59,784 nt of DNA from Candidatus Tayloriibacteriota bacterium. GTDB lineage: Bacteria > Patescibacteriota > Minisyncoccia > Phycocordibacterales > PALSA-1337. The stretch spans positions 1 to 59,784 of the forward strand of contig JAQBRD010000016.1 in the NCBI GenBank assembly GCA_028286665.1. The letters run 5' to 3'. Made by a program: the position numbers and the translations under genes. The notes beneath the pieces were generated by a model, which was not told the origin of the DNA, searched no databases, and saw only the letters and a program-made list of their open reading frames with translations. Within the stretch, counting starts at the first letter, position 1. Each line of letters begins with the position of its first letter. Positions 5,044 to 39,726 of the stretch are shown here, piece after piece.

Positions 5044-5126
5044 ATTGTATTAGTTTTGCGTACTCTGCATTATCTCAAATTACCGGCGCTCTGACAAATA
5101 TCCGCTTCATATAGTATACTTATCGC

Positions 5127-6047
5127 ATGGTAAACACATATACGTACAATGGCCTGACCTGGGTCGATGTCGAATCCCCGACGCGCGACGAGATCGGCGA
5201 GCTCGTTCGGAAATATGATCTCCATCCGACGATCGGCGACGAGCTCATCTCACCGATATCGGAACCTCGGGTCGAACTCCATAAGAACTGCGTATATCTC
5301 AACCTCGATATTCCCTCTCGCACGAAGCAGGGCCACAAAGGCGTCATCATGAAGAAAGAAGTCGACTTCGTCGTCGGCAAGGATTTCATCATCACTACAA
5401 AATACGATACAGTCGAGCCGCTCCATAATTTCTCCCGCATCTTCGAGACGAATTCGATCCTCGATAAGAAAGGCATCGGCGAGCATGCCGGCTTCATTTT
5501 CTACTACATGATAAAGAAGCTGTATGCGCACGTCGGTCGCGATCTGAGCAATATCCGCGATGATATGAGCCATGCTGAAACGAGGATCTTCGAAGGACAG
5601 GAACGCCGCATGGTCGTCGTCCTCTCGAATATCGGCCGGGAGCTCATCGATGCGCAGCAGATCCTCAGGACGCACGCGGAAGCGATCGAACTCGTCGGTC
5701 TCGCCATGGAGAAATTCTTCAGCCCGACATTCCGCTACTATACTGACGACATCACTGCCGACTACAAGAAAGTCTCGGAGCAGAGCAAGAACCTCCATGA
5801 GCTTCTCCGCGAACTCCGCGAGACGAACAACCTCCTCCTCACGACGAAGCAGAATGAGACGATGAAAAACCTCACGCTCATGGCTTTCGTCACATTCCCG
5901 CTCTCGCTCATCACCGATGTCTTCTCGATGAATACGAGTCATGCGCCGATCGTCGGCCTGCCCTATGACTTCGAGATCATCGTCGGAGTCATGCTCGTCC
6001 TGACGCTCTGCATGTTCGGATTCTTCCGATGGAAGAAATGGCTCTGA
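5127..6047 (+). CDS. corA: CorA-family divalent cation transporter (variant SMN motif)
   Basis: Soluble N-domain plus two C-terminal TM helices. MKNLTLMAFVTFPLSLITDVFSMNT is at the position of the YGMN loop. Confidence 0.8.
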   Translation: MVNTYTYNGLTWVDVESPTRDEIGELVRKYDLHPTIGDELISPISEPRVELHKNCVYLNLDIPSRTKQGHKGVIMKKEVDFVVGKDFIITTKYDTVEPLHNFSRIFETNSILDKKGIGEHAGFIFYYMIKKLYAHVGRDLSNIRDDMSHAETRIFEGQERRMVVVLSNIGRELIDAQQILRTHAEAIELVGLAMEKFFSPTFRYYTDDITADYKKVSEQSKNLHELLRELRETNNLLLTTKQNETMKNLTLMAFVTFPLSLITDVFSMNTSHAPIVGLPYDFEIIVGVMLVLTLCMFGFFRWKKWL

Positions 6048-6110
6048 TGTTTCGGCCGGCCTAGCCGGACGCCGCAGCTCATGATAGGCTCAAGGCAATA
6101 CAACATACGC

Positions 6111-7508
6111 ATGGATATTCTGATACACAATACGCTCAGCGGGAAAAAAGAGGTCTTCAAGCCCCTCGTCAAAGGCCGCGTCAGCATGTACCAGTGCGGA
6201 CTGACGGTCTATGATACCGGGCATATCGGCAATTTTCGGACATTCATCATGGGCGATATTATCCGTCGGACGTTCGAATATCGGGGTTATTTCGTGACGC
6301 AAGTTACGAATATCACTGACGTCGATGACAAGACTATCCGCAGAAGCCGCGAAGAGAAAACATCGCTTCTCGAGCTTACCCGGCGGTATGAAGCGCTTTA
6401 TTTCGAGGATATGGAATCGCTGAACATCCTCATGCCGCACAGGGTTCTTCGAGCTACCGATCATGTCAAAGACATGATCGAAATGATCAGCACGCTTCTC
6501 GAGAAAGGCTTCGCCTATCCATCGAAGGACGGCATCTATTTCAGCATCGGAAAATCAGCAGAATACGGCGCTCTTGCGCGTCTCGATAAGATCAGCGCTA
6601 CCGCAAACGACATGCTCAGGGAGCGGATTTCGAACGATGAGTACGAGAAGGAGAATCCTCGGGACTTCGCGCTCTGGAAATTCGAATCGGATGCCGATCG
6701 TGATGGCGAAAAAATCGTTTCCTGGGATGCACCGTTCGGAAAAGGCCGCCCTGGATGGCATATCGAGTGTTCCGCGATGGCGACTCGCGCGCTTGGCGAT
6801 ACGATCGACATCCATACTGGCGCTACTGACCTCATTTTCCCGCATCATACGAATGAGATCGCCCAGTCTGAAGCGGCTACCGGCAAGCGATTCGTGAATT
6901 ACTGGATTCATGGCGCTTTCATGAATGTGAACGATGCGAAGATGTCGAAGTCCAAGGGCAATTTCATAAAGATCGCAGATCTTGAAGCTGAAACCATCTC
7001 GCCGCTCAGTTTCAGATATTGGCTGCTCACCTCCCATTATCATACGCAAGTGAACTTCACTGCTGATGCGGTCAAAGCCGCCCAGCATGCGTTTATTCGC
7101 CTTGCAGAAGCATACGTCAGCTGGCCTGAAGGCGGTGCTGCTGATGCGACATATGCTGACAAATTCTCGGCTTTTATTAGCGATGATTTCGACATGCCGA
7201 AGGCTATCGCGCTTGTCTGGGAGCTTGCGAAGGACAAGAAGGTTTCAGACGCGGACAAGCGAGCTACTCTCCTTGATTTCGACCGCGTATTCGGACTTGG
7301 CTTCGATGCGCTTTTGCATGTAGATCAGGATTCAGGCATCCTCGCTCCTGCGGACGTTCCGATTGAAATTCAAGTTCTTGCTGAAGCTCGCGACGAGGCT
7401 CGCAAAGCGAAGGATTGGGCGAAAGCGGATGCGCTTCGCGCTGAGATCGAAGAGCGCGGCTATTCTGTTCAGGACAGCGATGCTGGCTTCGTGATTCGCG
7501 AGCTCTAG
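6111..7508 (+). CDS. cysS: cysteine--tRNA ligase
   Basis: CGLTVYDTGHIGNFRTF (HIGH) and KMSKSKGN. The ORF opens at 6081, but the conserved N-terminus begins at ATG 6111 (MDILIHNTLSGKKEVF). Confidence 0.95.
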   Translation: MDILIHNTLSGKKEVFKPLVKGRVSMYQCGLTVYDTGHIGNFRTFIMGDIIRRTFEYRGYFVTQVTNITDVDDKTIRRSREEKTSLLELTRRYEALYFEDMESLNILMPHRVLRATDHVKDMIEMISTLLEKGFAYPSKDGIYFSIGKSAEYGALARLDKISATANDMLRERISNDEYEKENPRDFALWKFESDADRDGEKIVSWDAPFGKGRPGWHIECSAMATRALGDTIDIHTGATDLIFPHHTNEIAQSEAATGKRFVNYWIHGAFMNVNDAKMSKSKGNFIKIADLEAETISPLSFRYWLLTSHYHTQVNFTADAVKAAQHAFIRLAEAYVSWPEGGAADATYADKFSAFISDDFDMPKAIALVWELAKDKKVSDADKRATLLDFDRVFGLGFDALLHVDQDSGILAPADVPIEIQVLAEARDEARKAKDWAKADALRAEIEERGYSVQDSDAGFVIREL

Positions 7509-7870
7509 GCTCCTGCCCTCTCTCTTCTGAAATCCTCAAATTCAGCGAGCTCATCTGCTTCATCCGAGCTCGCTGATTCCTTCGACTCTTCTTCGAAATT
7601 ATGGAGCGGCTGCATGGCGTCGAGTCGCGCCATGATTTTCAAGAAGCCGATATTCATTGCTGTTTCGAGCTTATCTATCCTTAATTCAAGCTGATTGAAT
7701 CTCAGCTCGAGCTTGTCTATTCTTGAACATACTTTATCGATCGAAGAATCGACTCGGACGAACTGATCGTTCACGAGAATCGCGAGATCATTGATCGCGG
7801 TGTCTATGATTTCCTTGACTTCGGTCCTTGTAGCGAAAGGCGTTTGATATTGCTGATGTTGCTGGCTCAT
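7505..7870 (-). CDS. hypothetical coiled-coil protein with acidic tail
   Basis: 121-aa ORF. Heptad-like IDKLELRFNQLELRIDKLE and an acidic C-terminus. It shares the tetranucleotide CTAG with the cysS stop (convergent overlap). Confidence 0.5.
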   Translation of the reverse strand: MSQQHQQYQTPFATRTEVKEIIDTAINDLAILVNDQFVRVDSSIDKVCSRIDKLELRFNQLELRIDKLETAMNIGFLKIMARLDAMQPLHNFEEESKESASSDEADELAEFEDFRRERAGA

Positions 7871-7970
7871 GCGTATTGCGTTAGCTGATATGAGATCAGC
7901 GTATCAAAGCGCGATGAAATTCCCTTCAAGAAGATATGAAGGAATACTAAAAGTTTATTTTGATTTTATC

Positions 7971-8711
7971 CTAAAGCTTGCCGAGGAATACCTTCTCGAG
8001 AATGCCGGTAGCGAGGAGCTGCTTCGGTTCGCCTTGGGCGACGACGCGGCCTTTGTCGAGGACGTATGCGCGATGCGTGATCTCGAGGAGCGATGCGAGA
8101 TTGTGTTCTACCACGACGACTGCTGTTCGGCGCCGTTCGTTGATCTCTTTGATCTTCGCGAAGACTTCCTTCACGATCTTGGGTGCGAGTCCGAGCGATG
8201 GCTCATCGAGCAGCAATACCTTCGGATCGGTCATGAGGCCTCGGGCTATGGCGAGCATCTGCTGCTGTCCGCCGGAGAGGCTGCCTGATTTCGCCTTCAA
8301 TTTCGCTCGCAATGCCGGAAATAATTCGAGCACATTCTCAATGCGCTCTTTGCGCTCTTTCGCGCTACTGATGGCCCATCCGCCGATCTCGAGATTCTCT
8401 GCGACGGTGAGATGGCGGAATACGCGTCGGCCTTGCGGGACGAATGAGATTCCGCGGTGGACGACTTCATGCGAGACCGGCTTGAAAGCTTGAGCTTCCC
8501 AGGCTACCGTGCCTGACTCGATCGGAGCGAGGCCGAAAATAGCCTTGAGGATCGTGGATTTTCCTGCACCGTTCGGTCCCATGAGCGCGACGACTTCCCC
8601 CTCGTCTATCGACACTGAGGCGCCATCAAGAGCCTTCACTCCGCCGTAATGGACGTGGATGTCGGTGAGGGTGAGGAGGGTTTCTTTCTTCATGAGGTAA
8701 TTATACCTCAT
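7971..8711 (-). CDS. livF: branched-chain-amino-acid-type ABC transporter ATP-binding protein (LivF-like)
   Basis: GPNGAGKST, LSGGQQQMLAIARGL, LLLDEPSLGL. An alternative start is ATG 8693 (MKKETLL). Confidence 0.9.
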   Translation of the reverse strand: MRYNYLMKKETLLTLTDIHVHYGGVKALDGASVSIDEGEVVALMGPNGAGKSTILKAIFGLAPIESGTVAWEAQAFKPVSHEVVHRGISFVPQGRRVFRHLTVAENLEIGGWAISSAKERKERIENVLELFPALRAKLKAKSGSLSGGQQQMLAIARGLMTDPKVLLLDEPSLGLAPKIVKEVFAKIKEINERRRTAVVVVEHNLASLLEITHRAYVLDKGRVVAQGEPKQLLATGILEKVFLGKL

Positions 8712-32663: not shown

Positions 32664-33233
32664 TCATGGACAACCGCAGTTGCCATCGCATGTGCAGATA
32701 GCATAGCTATCCCCTTTTGAATTCCAGTTATCCGAGAGTTCTTTCCCGAAAACTCGGGCAGCAATCTTGCTGGCCGGCCTCGAATTTTTCACATCTTGTT
32801 CGCGGGTCTCCTTTGTGAAAGGGTTGTGATGAATGAAGAATCCGAAGTTTGTCTCGCAGAACTTGGCATATTCTTTCGTAAAGACGATAAAATTATGCCA
32901 CGCTTCGTCAATTTTCTTTGACGGAGAGAGTCCGAATTTGGTGGTGTTTGTTGCGCAGAGGTAAAGAAACTTCACCAAATCTGCTACCAACTCCTCAGCT
33001 TCCTTTTTGGAGATTTTGAGTTCTTCCTCCAATCTCTCCACTAAGGCTGGGAAACGGTAGGCAAGCACTTCCTGCTTGCTGCGCATTTCCTTAACGGGGG
33101 GTTTGGTAATTACCTGGCCGCAACCGCTTTGGCAATCATGGCAGGAACCTCCACCACACAACGCTGTTTTCTGCTTGATTTTACCATGAGCAGCTCTGGC
33201 TTCACCACTTAGTCCTAACAATGTGCTTTTCAT
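32664..33233 (-). CDS. Cys-rich protein of unknown function, paralogue B
   Basis: CGGGSCHDCQSGCG ... KPPVKEMRSKQEVLAYRFPALVERLEEELKISKKEA ... IDEAWHNFIVFTKEYAKFCETNFGFFIHHNPFTKE ... CTCDGNCGCP. Confidence 0.75.
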   Translation of the reverse strand: MKSTLLGLSGEARAAHGKIKQKTALCGGGSCHDCQSGCGQVITKPPVKEMRSKQEVLAYRFPALVERLEEELKISKKEAEELVADLVKFLYLCATNTTKFGLSPSKKIDEAWHNFIVFTKEYAKFCETNFGFFIHHNPFTKETREQDVKNSRPASKIAARVFGKELSDNWNSKGDSYAICTCDGNCGCP

Positions 33234-33440: not shown

Positions 33441-36400
33441 CTAGATAACCACATTCACCAGCCTTCCCTTCACGATGATGACTTTCTTCACCGGCTTGTC
33501 GCCGATCCATTTCTTGATTTCAGAGATGGCGAGGGCGCGCGCTTCGAGGTCGGTGTTGCCGGCGTTCGTTTCGGATTCGAAGGTCGCGCGGACTTTGCCG
33601 TTCACCTGGACGATGATCTCGACGGTCGATTCGGCGAGCTTGGCTGCGTCGAAGACCGGCCACGCTGAAACATGGATCGATTCTTTGTGCTTCAATTTCG
33701 CCTGCCAGATCTCGTCGGCGACATGCGGTGCGAATGGCGCGAGGAGCTTGAGGAGCGTTTCATACTGGCCTTTCGATACCGTTGTCTCCCGCTCGAGCTC
33801 GTTCACTGCGATCATCATGGTGCTGATGGCCGTGTTGAAGCGCATCGCGTCGATGTCTTCGGTCACCTTCTTGATAGTCTTGTGGATGAGGGCCTCGATC
33901 TTCGCGGCGTTGCCTCCGATGATGATCTCAGCTGCGGTGACCTTCTCCTGAAGTCGCCAGACTCGCTCGATGAAGCGGCGGGAACCGATGGCGTTGTTCG
34001 TGCTCCACGCAGCCTGCTGGTCGAACGGACCGATGAACATTTCGTACACGCGGAGCGAGTCAGCCCCGATGTTCTTGATGATTTCATCCGGATTCACCAC
34101 ATTTCCCCATCGCTTGCTCATCTTGCGTCCGTCTTCGGCCATGATGAGGCCGACATGCTGGAGCTTCTTGAACGGCTCGATAGTCGTCACGACGCCGATG
34201 TCATAGAGGAACTTGTGCCAGAAGCGCGCATATATCAGATGTCGTGTCGCATGCTCAGCGCCGCCGACATAGAGGTCGACCGGTGCCCAGTAATGCTCTT
34301 TCTTCGAATCAGCGAAGGTTTTCTTGTTCTTCGGATCCATATAGCGGAGATAGTACCAGCATGAACCTGCCCATTGCGGCATGGTGTTGGTCTCGCGCTT
34401 GCCGAGACCTTTGCATTGCGGACATTTCACATTGACCCATTCTTCGATCGCGGCGAGCGGAGATTCGCCGGTGCCGGTCGGTTCGTAGAATTTCACCCGA
34501 GGGAGCTTCACCGGGAGATCTTTTTCAGGAACAGCGACGATGCCGCACTTCTCGCAGTGGATGATCGGGATAGGCTCGCCCCAATAGCGCTGGCGGGAGA
34601 AGACCCATGGTCGGAGCTTGTAATTCACTTTGCGCGTCGCGTAGCCCTTCTGCACGAGATGGTCGATGATGTCGCTGCGGACTTCTGACCATTCGCGTCC
34701 CGCGAATTCTGCGGGTTCAGTCAGGATGCCGTTCTTCACCGGAGGCTTGTCCTCGATGCCGTGCGCGCGGTTCCAAGCGATGACGAGCGCTTCTCGGTTG
34801 AGGAATTTCGACACTTCTTCAGACGAAAGCCACACTGCATCGTGCAGCGCTTTCTCCGATTCCGAGGTTTCCTTTCGATCTCCGTTCTTTAATTTGAAAA
34901 GAGCCGGCTGGAAATGCGCGAATCGATTCTCTTTCTTCACGATATGATAAAACTGCGCATGGAGCTTGCCGCCAAGGATCTTCACGAACTCAGGATTCGC
35001 ATACCCGGTCTCTTCGACTATCTCGCGGACGCCTGCAGCCGCAGGACCTTCATTGCCCTCGATGCCGCCGATGACGAAGCCCTTCCAGTCGACTGCCTTC
35101 GTGCTGAGGCAGAGATATTTGTCTTCTGACCAGTGCTTCACGACGCACATGACCGCATTTCGTTCTACATACGGAGCTTCCGGACGGACAGCATCTTCTC
35201 CTTCAGTGGTCTTGATGAGCTTCTCTGCGACCGGATGAAGCGGAAGATCGTATTTCTTTGCGAACGCATAGTCGCGCTCATCGTGCGCCGAGCAATTCAC
35301 CATGCCGGTGCCGTAGTCAGCCAAGACGTATGAAGCGATCCAGATCGGCAAGTCGCGACCGGTTCCTGCGAAATTCTCGATGTATCGGCCGGTGAACATC
35401 CCTTCCATGTCCTTGTCGATGTCGAAGCGGTTCGCGGCTTTCTTCGCCTTGATCTTCTCGACGAATTCGAGGACTGCCTTCTCGTTCTTCGTTCCCTTTA
35501 TGAGTTCAGCGACGAGCGGATGCTCAGGCGCGATGACGGTAAAAGTCTCCGCACAGTAGGTCTGAGGCACGGAGTTGTACATCTCGACGAGGATGCCGAG
35601 GTCTTTGATCTTGCACATGAAATTGACGCCTTCGCTGCGGCCGATCCAGTTCTTCTGGAGTTCCTTGATGGATTCGGGCCAGTCGAGGAGCGGCTTGTCG
35701 GCGGCTGCCTCTATCTTCGCGAGCTCCGCATCGCTCATATTGAGGCGCTGCATCCACACATCGAGCTCTGCGCAGGTAAAATTGTCGTGATTGAGCTTCT
35801 TCGGATCGAGCCAGACCGGCGCATGCTTCGCCTTCTCTTCGGCGCCGATCGGAGCCTGCGCATCGTCGATCAATTCGAAATGGATCGCATTCGAATATGC
35901 GACTCGGTTCTCGCCCTTGTGCGCTGCATAGTATTCGCCTTTGACGATGCCTCCGAGGACTCTGATGAATTTGAGATTCTTGTAGCCTGTCTCCTCGAGG
36001 ACTTCGCGGCGGGCTGCTTCGACGATATCCTCGCCTTCCTCAACGCCGCCGATGACGAAGCCTGTCCATGGGAATTTCTTCCACTTGATGCAGAGGATCT
36101 TGCCGTTCTTCGGATTCACGACGAGGGCATGAACGGTCTTTCGCTCGACCGATTTCTTGCCGGCGAGCGGCGGGTTCTTCCGGTCGACGAGATGCGGAAT
36201 ATCATCCCGATTCTTCGCATCGAGATCCTTGAGCATTCGATCTGCATAATCAGTGATCTTGAGGATCCACTGGCGCATCATTTTCTTCTCGACGGGCGTG
36301 CCGCAGCGTTCGCACTTGCCGTCCTCGACGTCTTCGTTCGCAAGGCCTGTCTTGTCGACTGGGCACCAGTTGATCGGCTCGAATGATTCGTATGCGAGCC

Positions 36401-36839
36401 CTCGCTTGAAGAGCTGCACGAATATCCACTGCGTCCATTTGTAGTATTCGGGATCGGTCGTGTTCACTTCTCGAGTCCAGTCATAGTCGAAGCCGATGTT
36501 CTCGAGCTGTTCCTTGAAATGCGCGACATTTTTCTTTACGGCGTCAGCCGGATTCGTCTTCATCTTGATCGCGTAATTCTCTGCAGGCAGGCCGAAAGCA
36601 TCGAAGCCCATCGGATGGAGGACTTCATGGCCCTGCATGCGTTTCATGCGCGAGACGATGTCGGTTGCGATATAGCCTTTCGGATGCCCGACATGGAGAC
36701 CCTCACCGGACGGATACGGGAACATGTCGAGGACGTAGAATTTCTTCTTCGCGCTATCGTCGCGCGTTCTGTAGATCTTCTTCGATGCCCAATTTTTCTG
36801 CCATTTCTTCTCGATTTTTGAGTGGTCGTATTGCTCCAT
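33441..36839 (-). CDS. leuS: leucine--tRNA ligase with two inserted Nudix-hydrolase domains
   Basis: HIGH (LHVGHPKGY), Zn finger CPVDK...CERCG, NWIGRSEG, VIAPEHPL, SAHDERD, SRQRYWGEPIP, KMSKR. In addition there are two perfect Nudix boxes, at nt 35982-36050 and 35001-35069. Confidence 0.95.
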   Translation of the reverse strand: MEQYDHSKIEKKWQKNWASKKIYRTRDDSAKKKFYVLDMFPYPSGEGLHVGHPKGYIATDIVSRMKRMQGHEVLHPMGFDAFGLPAENYAIKMKTNPADAVKKNVAHFKEQLENIGFDYDWTREVNTTDPEYYKWTQWIFVQLFKRGLAYESFEPINWCPVDKTGLANEDVEDGKCERCGTPVEKKMMRQWILKITDYADRMLKDLDAKNRDDIPHLVDRKNPPLAGKKSVERKTVHALVVNPKNGKILCIKWKKFPWTGFVIGGVEEGEDIVEAARREVLEETGYKNLKFIRVLGGIVKGEYYAAHKGENRVAYSNAIHFELIDDAQAPIGAEEKAKHAPVWLDPKKLNHDNFTCAELDVWMQRLNMSDAELAKIEAAADKPLLDWPESIKELQKNWIGRSEGVNFMCKIKDLGILVEMYNSVPQTYCAETFTVIAPEHPLVAELIKGTKNEKAVLEFVEKIKAKKAANRFDIDKDMEGMFTGRYIENFAGTGRDLPIWIASYVLADYGTGMVNCSAHDERDYAFAKKYDLPLHPVAEKLIKTTEGEDAVRPEAPYVERNAVMCVVKHWSEDKYLCLSTKAVDWKGFVIGGIEGNEGPAAAGVREIVEETGYANPEFVKILGGKLHAQFYHIVKKENRFAHFQPALFKLKNGDRKETSESEKALHDAVWLSSEEVSKFLNREALVIAWNRAHGIEDKPPVKNGILTEPAEFAGREWSEVRSDIIDHLVQKGYATRKVNYKLRPWVFSRQRYWGEPIPIIHCEKCGIVAVPEKDLPVKLPRVKFYEPTGTGESPLAAIEEWVNVKCPQCKGLGKRETNTMPQWAGSCWYYLRYMDPKNKKTFADSKKEHYWAPVDLYVGGAEHATRHLIYARFWHKFLYDIGVVTTIEPFKKLQHVGLIMAEDGRKMSKRWGNVVNPDEIIKNIGADSLRVYEMFIGPFDQQAAWSTNNAIGSRRFIERVWRLQEKVTAAEIIIGGNAAKIEALIHKTIKKVTEDIDAMRFNTAISTMMIAVNELERETTVSKGQYETLLKLLAPFAPHVADEIWQAKLKHKESIHVSAWPVFDAAKLAESTVEIIVQVNGKVRATFESETNAGNTDLEARALAISEIKKWIGDKPVKKVIIVKGRLVNVVI

Positions 36840-36887: not shown

Positions 36888-39098
36888 TTATTTGATCGGC
36901 CATTCGGTGACTATGAGCGGCAGCTTCTGCTTGTCGTCGACTGATCCTGGGATATATGACCAGATTTCTTCGGTAACGAAAGGTATGAACGGATGCAAGG
37001 TAATAAGCACTCTTTCGAGAGTTCGGAGGAGGAACTGCTGGCGCGATAGGACGACCGCCGGATCGACTGCTGCTGCGGAAGCATCCTTCGGGCCGAATGG
37101 ATTCGGTACGATCTTCTTGCTGTCTTCGAGGATGACATCGGCCAAGGTGTGCCAGACATAATGATAAAGCTTCTCTGCAGCCATATAGAAACGGTATTCT
37201 TCCATGTCCTTCGTAATATCGACGATGAGCGCATGGCGTTCCTCGCTGAGTTTCTTGTCAGCTTCGGTGTATGCGGTGAAATTTCGATCGTACGCGACGC
37301 CTTCGGTCGATGAAAGAATGAATCGGGTGATGTTCCAGATCTTGTTCGAGAAATTCTTGTATCCCTTGATCTTGTCTTCTCGGAGCGACATTTCGCTTCC
37401 TGGAGTATTGCCGACGACGAGGCCGAGGCGGAGCGCGTCGGTGCCGTATTTGTCGGTGAGATCGAGCGGATTGACCACATTTCCCTTGCTCTTGCTCATT
37501 TTTTTCCCCTGAGCATCATTCACCATGCCGTGGAGATATACGTATTTGAAAGGCTCCTTCTTCTCGAGATAGAGGCCGAAGATGACCATGCGCGGAATCC
37601 ATTTGAAGATGAGATCGGAGCCGGTTTCCATGACATTCGTCGGGTAGAAATTCTTGAAATCTGGCGAATCTGGATACCCGAGCGCGAGAAGCGGCCACTG
37701 GCCTGATGAGAACCATGTGTCGAAAGTATCGGTGTCCTTCGTGACTTCTGCCGATCCGCATTTCGGGCACTTCGAAATCGTTCCGTCGACATCGACGAAA
37801 TATTCTTTGCATCCGCCGCACAGCTTTGCCGGAACAGGAATTCCCCAGACGATCTGGCGCGAGATATTCCAATCGATGGTGTTCTCCATCCAATAGTTGA
37901 AGATCTTCCGGTAGTTATCAGGGATGAATTTCACTTTTTCCTCTGCGATAGCTTGCAATGCCTTGTCAGCAAGCGGTTTCATCTTCACGAACCACTGCGC
38001 CTTCACCTGCGGCTCGATGGCCGTACCGCATTTGTAGCAGCATGGAACGCTGTGCATATAATTTTCCTCAACCTTCTCGAGCAGTCCTTTCGCTTTGAGC
38101 TTCTCGACGATCTTCGGTCGAGCCTCGGCAATCTTCATGTCAGCGAATTCTCCTGCGATCGGCAAGAGCTTGCCTCTCCAGTCGATGATCTGCTCCTTCT
38201 CGAGCTTATGGCGTTCGGCGATCTCGAAGTCGATGCCGCTGTGCCACGGAGTGATGGTCATGACGCCGGTTCCGAAAGCCATGTCGATAGCCGCGTCCTT
38301 GATGACAGTCGCGGTGATCGGGCCATTGATCCATTCGAGATCGAACTTGTCGCCGTGCTTGTATTGCTCATATCGCTTGTCGTCCGGATGCATTACGACG
38401 TACTTGTCGCCGAACTTCGTCTCAGGACGAGCTGTTCCGATAATGAAAGGCCCGTATTTGAAATAGTAGAAGGCATCTTTCTGCTCTTTGCTCTCGGTCT
38501 CAACATCTGAGAGCGATGTCTGATGCTTCGAGCACCAGTTTACGATTCGCGAACCTCGGTATACGAGGCCATCATCAAAGAGCTTCTTGAAAGTATTCTG
38601 GACTTCCTTCACGATCTTCTCATCGAGCGTGAATCTATTGCGAGACCAATCGCATGAAGCGCCGATCTTCTGAATCTCGGACTCGATATGCTTCTTGTTC
38701 TCAAGCGTGAAGGCCATGATCTCATCATAGAGCTCTTTCGGCTCCATCTTGAAACGGGATCGTCCTTCCTTTTCGAGTTTTTTTTCGTACACCACCTGCG
38801 TCTCAAATCCGGCATGGTCAGTACCTGGAACCCAGAGAGCTTTGTAGCCCTGCATTCGCTTGAAGCGGATCATGATGTCTTCGAGGGTCATCGCGAGTGC
38901 GTGACCAGCGTGAATATGGCCGTTGGCATTGAGCGGCGGCATGATGATCGTATACGGCTTTGTGAAGCGGTTGCCGCCATTCGCTGCGCCGATCTCCGCG
39001 AGCTTGTCAGGGTTGAAATAGTCGCCGTCGAGCCACATTTTGTATATGCGGTCCTCTGTTTCCTTCGGGTTGTAGGGTTTCAGGAATTTGTCATTCAT
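36888..39098 (-). CDS. valS: valine--tRNA ligase (short form, 736 aa)
   Basis: PPLNANGHIHAGHAL (HIGH), GTARPETKFGD (editing domain), KKMSKSKGN. The conserved N-terminus starts at ATG 39098 (MNDKFLKPYNPKETEDRIYKMW). The upstream part of the ORF (to 39365) has no ValRS similarity. Confidence 0.93.
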   Translation of the reverse strand: MNDKFLKPYNPKETEDRIYKMWLDGDYFNPDKLAEIGAANGGNRFTKPYTIIMPPLNANGHIHAGHALAMTLEDIMIRFKRMQGYKALWVPGTDHAGFETQVVYEKKLEKEGRSRFKMEPKELYDEIMAFTLENKKHIESEIQKIGASCDWSRNRFTLDEKIVKEVQNTFKKLFDDGLVYRGSRIVNWCSKHQTSLSDVETESKEQKDAFYYFKYGPFIIGTARPETKFGDKYVVMHPDDKRYEQYKHGDKFDLEWINGPITATVIKDAAIDMAFGTGVMTITPWHSGIDFEIAERHKLEKEQIIDWRGKLLPIAGEFADMKIAEARPKIVEKLKAKGLLEKVEENYMHSVPCCYKCGTAIEPQVKAQWFVKMKPLADKALQAIAEEKVKFIPDNYRKIFNYWMENTIDWNISRQIVWGIPVPAKLCGGCKEYFVDVDGTISKCPKCGSAEVTKDTDTFDTWFSSGQWPLLALGYPDSPDFKNFYPTNVMETGSDLIFKWIPRMVIFGLYLEKKEPFKYVYLHGMVNDAQGKKMSKSKGNVVNPLDLTDKYGTDALRLGLVVGNTPGSEMSLREDKIKGYKNFSNKIWNITRFILSSTEGVAYDRNFTAYTEADKKLSEERHALIVDITKDMEEYRFYMAAEKLYHYVWHTLADVILEDSKKIVPNPFGPKDASAAAVDPAVVLSRQQFLLRTLERVLITLHPFIPFVTEEIWSYIPGSVDDKQKLPLIVTEWPIK

Positions 39099-39183
39099 AA
39101 CGTGGGCAGCGCATCGCGCAATGCCTATAAATATAGCAGAAATAAGGCTTTTTGCCACTCGCGAGGAGGCTTCGTTGGTATGC

Positions 39184-39212
39184 TTGACAAAGAATAATAA
39201 GTCTGCTAGTAT
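39184..39212 (+). promoter_or_regulatory. candidate promoter TTGACA-17-TAGTAT driving the non-coding locus
   Basis: TTGACA at 39184-39189 and TAGTAT at 39207-39212. It points away from valS into an ORF-poor region. Confidence 0.45.
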
Positions 39213-39219
39213 ACTCAAT

Positions 39220-39726
39220 ACGGCAATCTGATGGAATCCATTGGGTCTGCCGGTCGTAACAAAGCACACGAGCGAGAAAGTCTTGGGGTATTGACCAAGC
39301 TGCATATAAGCCAAGCAATGATTCGCCTGAGTGGAAGCTAAACAACTAGGCAGATCAAGTGGCAATATTCAAGATACAAAGGTTTGCAACTGACCACTAA
39401 GTCCATAATTGGAGCATCGGGTGGAAAAGTTAGGGCAATATTCGCAGCAGAGTGCGCGATGAGCCGTTACAAGCGATGGAGTCCGACCATAAGACTGAAG
39501 ATGCGAGCGGAGACTATCGCATCAAAGAATTATGGATTAAGCACAAGCGATCCTCAGTCTTCCCGGTAAAAAAAGGTGAGTTCCGGGAGCCACGCCTGAT
39601 TGTGACCAGCAAGTAAGTGGTCAGATACAGAGCGGAAAGGTAAAACTCGGTACCAGTGGTATCCAGAAGGCCAAAGTGTTCGTGGGTCGCCGATTGCCTT
39701 GTGCATCGGCGGCCCTTTCTTCTTTT
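39220..39726 (+). ncRNA. candidate structured non-coding RNA of about 0.5 kb, class unassigned
   Basis: 633-bp gap between valS and tkt. It has a plus-strand promoter-like element, several 5-7-bp hairpins (39282-39299, 39500-39523, 39603-39623), a 10-nt direct repeat GGCAATATTC (39361 and 39434) and a strong plus-strand terminator. The only ORF is a TTG-initiated one of 61 codons without an SD. Confidence 0.45.
39684..39726 (+). terminator. rho-independent terminator (plus strand)
   Basis: GGGTCGCCGATtgccttgtgcATCGGCGGCCCtttcttctttt: 11-bp stem (one G-U) plus a U-rich tail. The minus-strand version has no U tail. Confidence 0.75.

Follow-up and report, generated by a model that had tools for sequence, protein, structure and literature searches.

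Can a housekeeping aminoacyl-tRNA synthetase (aaRS) carry hydrolases within its own polypeptide, and what would they do there? The question is raised by the leuS gene of a Candidatus Tayloriibacteriota bacterium, an ultra-small member of the Patescibacteria, which we analysed within a window of 59,784 nucleotides (nt; contig JAQBRD010000016.1 of assembly GCA_028286665.1, positions 1 to 59,784). The gene is a single uninterrupted open reading frame (ORF) with an ATG start, at positions 33441-36839 of the minus strand, and its product, a leucyl-tRNA synthetase (LeuRS) of 1132 amino acids (aa), contains two additional domains of the Nudix type. To our knowledge, the domain make-up of bacterial aaRS is considered essentially fixed, and these are among the most intensively studied enzymes. 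The two domains had been noticed in an earlier reading of the window, made without database searches (hereafter the original prediction). We lean slightly towards the view that both are autonomous and probably active as pyrophosphohydrolases, with a functional tie to the synthetase.

Two Nudix domains inserted in a bacterial-type LeuRS

The ORF is a bacterial-type LeuRS. The whole protein scored 948 bits against the NCBIfam model TIGR00396 (leuS_bact, cut-off 548.4), and Pfam recognised tRNA-synt_1, tRNA-synt_1_2 (the LeuRS editing domain, aa 396-545), Anticodon_1 and two stretches of NUDIX. When aligned to the LeuRS of Thermus thermophilus (Tt; PDB entry 1H3N), the protein was co-linear with it: its residues 1-209, 385-540, 703-902 and 906-1132 correspond to Tt 1-210, 210-364, 380-580 and 637-876, respectively, and all the landmarks quoted in the original prediction were found in their expected order. 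The first zinc module (ZN1, aa 159-179) precedes the editing domain, which is the topology of the bacterial connective polypeptide 1 (CP1). Downstream of the inserts follow the SRQRYWG motif, the second zinc module (ZN2, HCEKCG...CPQCKG), the second half of the Rossmann domain, the KMSKR loop, the anticodon-binding domain and the C-terminal domain. From its sequence, the enzyme is apparently functional as a synthetase. An AlphaFold2 (AF2) model of the full-length protein reached a mean predicted local distance difference test (pLDDT) of 85.5 and a predicted template modelling score (pTM) of 0.72; its best PDB matches in a fold search were bacterial LeuRS, with target-normalised TM-scores of at most 0.82 (E. 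coli LeuRS-tRNA structures 4AQ7 and 5OMW).

The same alignment places the two inserts. Insert 1 interrupts the alignment cleanly at Tt residue 210, where ZN1 is followed by the CP1 linker; insert 2 takes the place of a short loop (Tt 365-379) that belongs to the C-terminal portion of the editing domain and comes about 17 residues past the AHDxRD motif. The description of the inserts as bracketing CP1 was approximately right in this respect, except that insert 2 lies inside CP1 and not after it.

Each insert, taken alone, passed the gathering score of Pfam NUDIX (21.1 bits), as anticipated: insert 1 scored 57.1 bits (E 2.5e-15) and insert 2 scored 41.3 bits (E 2e-10). Both contain the Nudix box GX5EX7REUXEEXGU exactly, at the nucleotide positions that had been reported for the two boxes (Table 1), and a relaxed version of the pattern matched only these two places in all six-frame ORFs of at least 70 aa of the window. 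The residues of box 1 are invariant in our alignment A1, and those of box 2 in alignment A2. Structure prediction gave the Nudix fold that had been expected. For insert 1, an AF2 model based on 22 aligned modules had the Nudix pattern of strands and helices (pLDDT 90.2, pTM 0.85), and Foldseek returned 474 PDB matches to it at E<=1e-3, the top matches listed being all Nudix folds. In the full-length model both inserts were predicted at about 85-95 pLDDT (insert 2 at about 89-95) with one common secondary-structure pattern. On these models, both inserts are Nudix folds with complete catalytic motifs.

A widespread architecture

The LeuRS-Nudix fusion is no singular oddity. It belongs to a large family found across the candidate phyla radiation (CPR), whose members already stand in public databases with automatically assigned names ('leucine--tRNA ligase' or 'class I tRNA ligase family protein', for example). 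As relatives we took the best 120 matches listed from a search with the whole protein; the named organisms among them were Patescibacteria, Paceibacterota, Nomurabacteria, Taylorbacteria, Magasanikbacteria and Parcubacteria, and PF00293 was present in nearly all. Many assemblies of independent origin encode the two-insert architecture, with matches of 50-56% identity that cover the full protein. We additionally scanned species-representative genomes with two short motifs of the insert 2 type of module, a procedure whose counts are lower bounds; at least 196 loci were confirmed, mostly in genomes named CPR, and in 78-79 of the 80 loci fetched the module lay within a LeuRS ORF. The reality of the architecture, in this gene and in the family, is in our view close to certain.

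Because the same two-insert architecture is found in many independent assemblies, a chimeric assembly or a frameshift can be excluded in practice; the ORF is also uninterrupted, and the G+C content is flat along leuS. An intein or another mobile element was considered and rejected: Pfam detected neither Hint nor endonuclease nor transposase domains, the borders of the inserts carry no direct or inverted repeats, and the in-register match of the two paralogous modules, 981 nt apart, was the sole repeat signal.

Several of the LeuRS-Nudix loci (L002, L009, L010, L017, L021, L028, L029, L045 and others) come from metagenome bins with unexpected titles, namely 'uncultured Gammaproteobacteria', 'Saccharibacteria', 'Nanoarchaeota' and 'Woesearchaeota'. 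These titles may reflect mislabelling or mis-binning, or a real transfer of bacterial-type leuS into DPANN archaea; the organism names of several bins are evidently unreliable.

Insertion hot-spots in LeuRS relatives

We defined insertion hot-spots in the 120 relatives by the spacing between LeuRS landmarks, and four were found. Site 1, between ZN1 and the WPES motif, has a baseline of 14-22 aa and is expanded to about 180 aa when it holds one Nudix domain or to about 350 aa when it holds two Nudix-like modules. Site B, inside the editing domain, expands from about 111 to about 290 aa; site 2, between AHDxRD and SRQRYWG, from 17-65 to about 205 aa; and site 3, between SRQRYWG and GGAEHA, from about 94 to about 300 aa. 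Inserts 1 and 2 of the window protein occupy sites 1 and 2. Besides Nudix, the hot-spots are filled by Ser_hydrolase, HAD_2 and Ham1p_like domains, and the largest architectures combine up to three Nudix modules with another hydrolase in one LeuRS of about 1550 aa. There are 15 different insert combinations among the 120 relatives. That of the window, one Nudix at site 1 and one at site 2, is the second commonest (25/120).

Examples of the other fillers are seen in P0007, P0013, P0027 and P0087, in which Ser_hydrolase lies inside the editing domain or at site 3, HAD_2 at site 3 and Ham1p_like at site 1.

The modules are old paralogues under constraint

Inserts 1 and 2 are 38% identical over 120 ungapped residues (E 2e-26), and their likeness had been taken as a sign of an internal duplication. 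To place them we compared 190 modules from the 120 proteins. The nearest neighbour of a site 2 module was another site 2 module in 83 of 87 cases. For the site 2 module of the window, the closest counterparts (58-69%) belong to the nearest LeuRS relatives (P0002, P0003, P0005), all of which are without a site 1 insert, and the site 1 module of the window was closest (68-74%) to the first of the tandem modules at site 1 of three proteins (P0019, P0041, P0029) that have no site 2 insert; the modules of other two-insert proteins were only 40-45% identical to those of the window. The inserts are paralogues, as proposed, but they do not descend from a recent event within this gene, a possibility that we rejected for the old and largely site-specific module lineages. 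Since the closest relatives of the two modules lie in different sets of single-site LeuRS, and free-standing orthologues exist as well, module comparison indicates that the duplication is old and that gain, loss or recombination has since rearranged the architectures.

The strict box (GX5EX7REUXEEXG) is kept in 42 of 51 single site 1 modules, in 25 of 26 first-of-tandem site 1 modules and in 69 of 87 site 2 modules, and in only 4 of 26 second-of-tandem site 1 modules; at least one strict box is present in 105 of the 120 proteins. Most exceptions share a variant, GG[IV]E.GQ..E.AA.[AST]EI.EETG, in which the first Glu and the Arg are lost together and the three metal-binding Glu are kept; it prevails in the second of the tandem modules at site 1. 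Outside the box, an invariant K..NR motif and a Trp are common to both sites. Conservation of the modules (45% and 42%) is similar to that of the editing domain (41.5%), and segments of the catalytic core reach 62-77%. By these alignments the modules are under constraint.

A Nudix subfamily associated with synthetase genes

The same kind of domain also occurs as a separate gene. At locus L078 it is encoded by a gene of 161 aa, which ends only 2 nt ahead of the start codon (ATG) of a leuS that has no insert; an alternative genetic code (table 25) is not needed at this locus, the Nudix gene being genuinely separate. We built a profile of seven free-standing proteins and searched it against 1.84 billion representative proteins, which gave 104 clusters at E<=1e-30 and, at E<=1e-10, 332; with these numbers, the Nudix subfamily to which both inserts belong, seen in this analysis in genomes named CPR or DPANN, is small and distinct. 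Among the best 150 matches, 88 had LeuRS motifs, most of the other mid-sized matches scanned were LeuRS fragments with an editing domain, and about 37 were free-standing proteins of 150-210 aa. A few were tandem-Nudix proteins or joined Nudix to an unassigned extension, and one (P0190) was a class II prolyl-tRNA synthetase (ProRS) with the module between its anticodon-binding and C-terminal domains. This ProRS-Nudix form makes up five clusters (P0190, P0274-P0277); the close relatives around them, about 115, lack the insert, and some are named as DPANN (Nanoarchaeota or Woesearchaeota).

We read the gene neighbourhoods of 11 independent free-standing lineages. In five of them the direct neighbour was an aaRS gene, at gaps of 1-48 nt: leuS in three (P0121/P0122, 2-4 nt upstream; P0146, 1 nt upstream of a leuS with only the site 2 Nudix; P0143, 10 nt upstream), thrS in one (P0213, 48 nt upstream) and argS in one (P0158, 12 nt downstream). 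The chance of five or more among 11 is about 1e-3, given a rough estimate that aaRS genes hold 6-8% of adjacent positions. In a further lineage (P0163) the gene stands two genes upstream of a ProRS-Nudix gene (locus L096, 2762-4693), and P0123, P0126, P0127, P0149 and P0136 have no aaRS neighbour. Nudix domains of this subfamily do not need a host protein to exist, and in the genomes they are linked to synthetases of class I and class II alike.

The P0146 protein is of the site 1 type and is 52% identical to insert 1 of the window, the linker NPPxxGKKxVER included; for this reason insert 1 is the fused form of what is a separate upstream gene in the P0146 genome, a fusion/fission (Rosetta-stone) relationship. 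A general rule that a single-insert leuS has an extra Nudix gene upstream was rejected: within 3.5 kb, only L078 showed an upstream Nudix gene among the 80 species-representative loci, P0146 being a further case that was read from the gene table only.

Other neighbours were noted at three loci. Locus L091 contains at 5094-8498 an isoleucyl-type class I synthetase (>1184 aa) with a His_Phos_1 domain between the halves of tRNA-synt_1, in a neighbourhood with argS, a free-standing subfamily Nudix, another Nudix, a dUTPase and a thymidylate kinase; as this synthetase is not a LeuRS, hydrolase insertions in CPR synthetases are not confined to LeuRS. At L089 (3016-4513) the P0149 gene starts 4 nt past a gene for the Fpg/MutM DNA glycosylase, and at L081 a free-standing member lies near MsrA/MsrB.

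Possible functions of the Nudix domains

In the reading that we favour, two autonomous Nudix domains have been inserted into surface loops of the connective-polypeptide region of LeuRS, and each would act as a Mg2+-dependent pyrophosphohydrolase through the glutamates of its REx2EE signature. They would work beside the synthetase and not as part of the leucylation or editing chemistry. Their substrates would most plausibly be Ap4A, Ap3A or RNA capped with them, so that diadenosine polyphosphates (ApnA) would be cleared in cis or near-cis. The parts of this proposal deserve different degrees of trust: catalytic activity of the domains we consider likely, given their motifs, a functional coupling to the synthetase, as opposed to hitch-hiking, is somewhat probable, and ApnA, the most plausible class of substrate suggested by the X-loops, is put forward only tentatively.

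Synthetases themselves make ApnA, from aminoacyl-AMP and ATP, and these are the only nucleoside-diphosphate-X compounds that they are known to produce. It is for this reason, together with the lead given by a Tyr in the X-loop, that we rank ApnA clearance as the likeliest role, and its in-cis form, which was among the original proposals, is plausible and indirectly supported. A conserved Tyr about 17 residues past the box goes with ApnA hydrolase activity (Dunn et al. 1999, reviewed in PMC5389931). A Tyr at +17 or +18 was found in 122 of 179 modules, which is a correlate, not a proof, of ApnA hydrolases. The Ap4A hydrolases 3I7U and 1F3Y were among the top PDB matches (E 5e-6 to 1e-3), a weak similarity driven in part by the box; other weak PDB sequence or profile matches were Dcp2, ADP-ribose pyrophosphatase, CT771 and AvrM14. 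On chemical grounds a Nudix enzyme is unlikely to play another of the proposed roles, the destruction of a mis-activated aminoacyl-adenylate: Nudix chemistry operates on a nucleoside diphosphate linked to X, and aminoacyl-AMP is an acyl-phosphate.

Several observations weigh against the favoured reading. No curated Nudix model of NCBIfam reached its cut-off: among the RppH models (NF001934-NF001938) the best, NF001938, gave 35.4 bits against 116 over some 30 residues around the box, and MutT, NudE, NudB, YtkD and other named Nudix equivalogs gave at most 29 bits against cut-offs of 95-475. The fold search was generic: its first match was a protein of E. faecalis that is uncharacterised, and similar scores went to ADP-ribose pyrophosphatase, RppH, NudI and Ap4A hydrolases. 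The resemblance to Ap4A hydrolases comes mostly from the Nudix box. We therefore abandoned the assignment to a named Nudix subfamily, all NCBIfam, PDB sequence or profile and Foldseek matches being generic or weak. LeuRS is only a modest producer of Ap4A and arginyl-tRNA synthetase (ArgRS) is not known to make any, and yet one free-standing gene adjoins argS. The neighbourhood of P0149 hints at a MutT-like role, on oxidised guanine nucleotides, for that lineage at least. Since a sizeable minority of modules, including 22 of 26 second-of-tandem site 1 modules, have a non-canonical box, catalysis is not required of every module copy. Finally, the presence of Ser-hydrolase, HAD and Ham1 domains at the same hot-spots fits equally well with LeuRS being a convenient host.

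This last point leads to the first alternative and main rival, which we judge rather unlikely: the inserts would be ordinary nucleotide-sanitising or metabolite-repair hydrolases, acting for instance on oxidised or non-canonical nucleotides or on ADP-sugars, with no mechanistic link to aminoacylation. LeuRS would be a passive scaffold, an essential, constitutive and insertion-tolerant host that guarantees expression in the tiny, sparsely regulated genomes of the CPR. The varied combinations in which the four hot-spots carry Ham1/ITPase, HAD_2 and Ser_hydrolase as well, the combinatorial gain and loss of architectures among close relatives and the generic character of the profile and fold matches, by which no specific subfamily can be assigned, are all consistent with such house-cleaning, and so are the free-standing members near dUTPase, thymidylate kinase and another Nudix (L091), near Fpg (L089) and near MsrA/MsrB (L081). 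However, the contexts seen in the best 150 matches were almost only LeuRS, one ProRS and free-standing genes, with no other essential host among them; aaRS genes are tightly adjacent in 5 of 11 free-standing lineages; and independent insertion in class I and class II synthetases is hard to explain if the host was chosen by chance.

Alternatively, the domains might be directed at RNA. Positioned by the RNA-binding surface of the synthetase, they would act in the manner of RppH or Dcp2, either on tRNA or on the 5' ends of RNA with a triphosphate or with NAD or Np4A caps. The best partial NCBIfam matches were indeed to RppH models, PDB profile matches included Dcp2, the AvrM14 decapping effectors and E. 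coli RppH, and both inserts stand on the CP1 region that handles tRNA. We nevertheless think this improbable: the scores are far under the family cut-offs and centred on the Nudix box, the free-standing forms imply that the domain needs no synthetase for its targeting, and there is no obvious tRNA substrate because mature tRNA has a 5' monophosphate, made by RNase P.

It is very unlikely that the inserts are non-catalytic modules which sense nucleotides or play a structural or interaction role and so modulate LeuRS, for instance its CP1 movement or oligomerisation. Non-enzymatic Nudix-fold proteins are known (PMC5389931) and give a precedent, many modules of the relatives have the conserved variant box without the Arg and the first Glu, and 15 of the 120 proteins have no strict box. 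On the other hand, both boxes of the window are perfect, about 75-96% of the modules that are single at site 1, first of a tandem or at site 2 keep the strict box while their overall identity is only some 40-50%, and even the variant boxes still hold the three metal-binding glutamates. As for an artefact (mis-assembly, frameshift) or an intein- or transposon-like insert removed from the mature protein, the unusual ORF length is all that speaks for it, and it becomes negligible against an uninterrupted ORF of uniform G+C content, independent assemblies and at least 196 species, the lack of Hint, intein or transposase domains and of flanking repeats, and inserts modelled as folded domains continuous with LeuRS.

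The favoured reading of active pyrophosphohydrolases tied to the synthetase can be extended, in a form that we regard as speculative and on balance doubtful. The subfamily would be a dedicated aaRS partner in CPR and DPANN genomes, working in cis when inserted in LeuRS or ProRS and in trans when encoded beside leuS, thrS, argS or proS, and removing a nucleotide by-product such as ApnA or ApnA-capped RNA. LeuRS itself would be a multi-enzyme platform in which the inserted Nudix, HAD, Ser-hydrolase and Ham1 domains each process a product or an error of the synthetase reaction. If true, synthetase-linked quality control or alarmone control would have a layer that had so far gone unrecognised.

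Relation to known systems

The window protein has the same module order as bacterial LeuRS of known structure (1H3N/2BTE; E. coli 4AQ7), namely Rossmann 1, ZN1, CP1, ZN2, Rossmann 2, anticodon-binding and C-terminal domains. It differs from them in its two extra domains of about 165-175 aa, one at Tt 210 and one in place of Tt 365-379, in the lack of a leucine-specific domain, in its YNSVPQT motif and in the change of a ZN1 Cys to Asp.

With Ap4A hydrolases and RppH (human NUDT2, Aquifex 3I7U, lupin 1F3Y, E. coli RppH) the inserts share the predicted fold, the full box and an aromatic residue or Tyr in the X-loop. The identity is 15-22% (E 1e-3 to 5e-6), however, and the subfamily of the window is set apart by an invariant K..NR and by an N-terminal linker that is conserved; moreover, those enzymes are free-standing, whereas the domain described here is mostly embedded in a synthetase.

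Housekeeping synthetases with an extra domain of catalytic type have a counterpart in NF040702 ('isoleucine--tRNA ligase, N-acetyltransferase domain-containing'), and eukaryotic synthetases carry appended domains. In contrast to these, the LeuRS additions are insertions internal to the CP region and not terminal, they are Nudix domains (and Ser-hydrolase, HAD or Ham1 in relatives) at up to four sites per protein, and they are confined to genomes named CPR or DPANN. A further parallel is given by the double MutT/Nudix-domain proteins (Lin et al. 2009, cited in PMC5389931), whose single chain likewise holds two paralogous Nudix domains and which recall the tandem modules at site 1 of some LeuRS relatives; in the window protein the domains are split by the editing domain, belong to distinct site-specific lineages and do not result from a local tandem duplication. 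The conceptual pairing of an ApnA-making synthetase with an ApnA-degrading Nudix enzyme is known from Ap4A signalling by lysyl-tRNA synthetase (LysRS; PMC7244319 for Ap4A made by LysRS) with a Nudix Ap4A hydrolase. There, in eukaryotes, the two activities are experimentally established and belong to separate proteins, whereas in CPR and DPANN they would be fused or encoded in one operon, a pairing that we only infer.

As the original prediction supposed, no synthetase with Nudix domains seems to have been described: none was found in full-text literature searches, and tRNA synthetases are unmentioned in the 2017 review of the Nudix clan (PMC5389931). The LeuRS-Nudix architecture is apparently both widespread and undescribed. 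A whole bacterial radiation has a LeuRS rebuilt as a carrier of one to five extra hydrolase domains, and one type of Nudix follows synthetase genes in three forms, as an insertion in a class I enzyme, as an insertion in a class II enzyme and as a tightly adjacent gene. Should the domains act on ApnA-type compounds, this would be the first synthetase physically joined to an enzyme that destroys its own side product, and it would bear on the control of alarmones and of RNA capping in minimal, symbiotic cells. Even as passengers, they would mark natural and well-tolerated insertion sites in LeuRS, useful for protein engineering and for understanding the origin of CP1-type insertions. In either case the family offers a clean set of fused and unfused pairs for experiments.

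Other features of the LeuRS and of the window

The coordinates of the features of the LeuRS are collected in Table 1.

Table 1. Parts and motifs of the leuS product, in the order of the protein (positions in the window; Tt, T. thermophilus LeuRS 1H3N).
Feature	Residues	Positions (nt)	Strand	Basis or remark
First half of the catalytic Rossmann domain, with ZN1	1-209	36213-36839	-	Alignment to Tt 1-210
HIGH motif, HVGH	49-52	36684-36695	-	Motif coordinates
ZN1 module	159-179	36303-36365	-	Motif coordinates
Insert 1, site-1-type Nudix with own N-terminal linker and C-terminal helices	210-384	35688-36212	-	Pfam, AF2
Linker of insert 1, NPPLAGKKSVER		36141-36176	-	Motif coordinates
Nudix box 1, GGVEEGEDIVEAARREVLEETGY; R278, E279, E282, E283	264-286	35982-36050	-	Pattern match
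X-loop 1, EYYAAHKGENR	302-312	35904-35936	-	Tyr at +17 and +18 after the box, then K..NR
CP1 editing domain, N-terminal and central part	385-540	35220-35687	-	Pfam tRNA-synt_1_2, Tt alignment
Variant T-rich motif YNSVPQT (canonical FTTRPDT)		35559-35579	-	Motif coordinates
GTGMVNCSAHDERD, conserved editing Asp (AHDERD) kept		35271-35312	-	Motif coordinates
Insert 2, site-2-type Nudix	541-702	34734-35219	-	Pfam, Tt alignment, AF2
Nudix box 2, GGIEGNEGPAAAGVREIVEETGY; R605, E606, E609, E610	591-613	35001-35069	-	Pattern match
X-loop 2, QFYHIVKKENR	629-639	34923-34955	-	Phe at +17, Tyr at +18, then K..NR
Rest of LeuRS, end of CP1 to C-terminal domain, with stop codon	703-1132	33441-34733	-	Pfam, Tt alignment
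SRQRYWG motif		34578-34598	-	Motif coordinates
KMSKR motif	906-910	34110-34124	-	Motif coordinates

Some further details concern the synthetase itself. ZN1 reads CPVDK...CERC, with an Asp at the second zinc-ligand Cys of the family consensus CPSC...CERC. In the 1H3N alignment there is no counterpart of the leucine-specific domain of T. thermophilus (about residues 581-636), and the KMSKR loop follows directly (aa 902-906, about nt 34122-34136). The editing-site stretch GTGAVMAVPAHD reads GTGMVNCSAHD in the window LeuRS (nt 35271-35312, minus strand).

The T-rich motif of the editing site is a variant as well. Among the best 120 relatives, the variant of the window is conserved in a clade of about 45, the canonical TTRP was found in 54, and a third variant, TFSAHF, in about 10. 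These variants suggest that the specificity of post-transfer editing may be altered or lost in part of the CPR LeuRS family; the variation bears on editing specificity and not on membership of the LeuRS family. The idea that the inserts compensate for a degenerate editing site was rejected, the type of T-rich motif being uncorrelated with the insert architecture.

No tRNA genes, and no Rfam family at its gathering score, were found anywhere in the 59.8-kb window (1-59784). Downstream of leuS lies an ORF of 189 aa on the same strand (32664-33233, minus), with Cys-rich ends (CGGGSCHDCQSGCG... and ...CTCDGNCGCP) and no Pfam match. Directly upstream, also on the minus strand and 48 nt from the ATG of leuS, is a gene for a valyl-tRNA synthetase (36888-39365). 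As listed, its ORF starts at a TTG, and the first 100 or so residues bear no similarity to synthetases; the true start is probably an internal Met near MNDKFLKPYNP.

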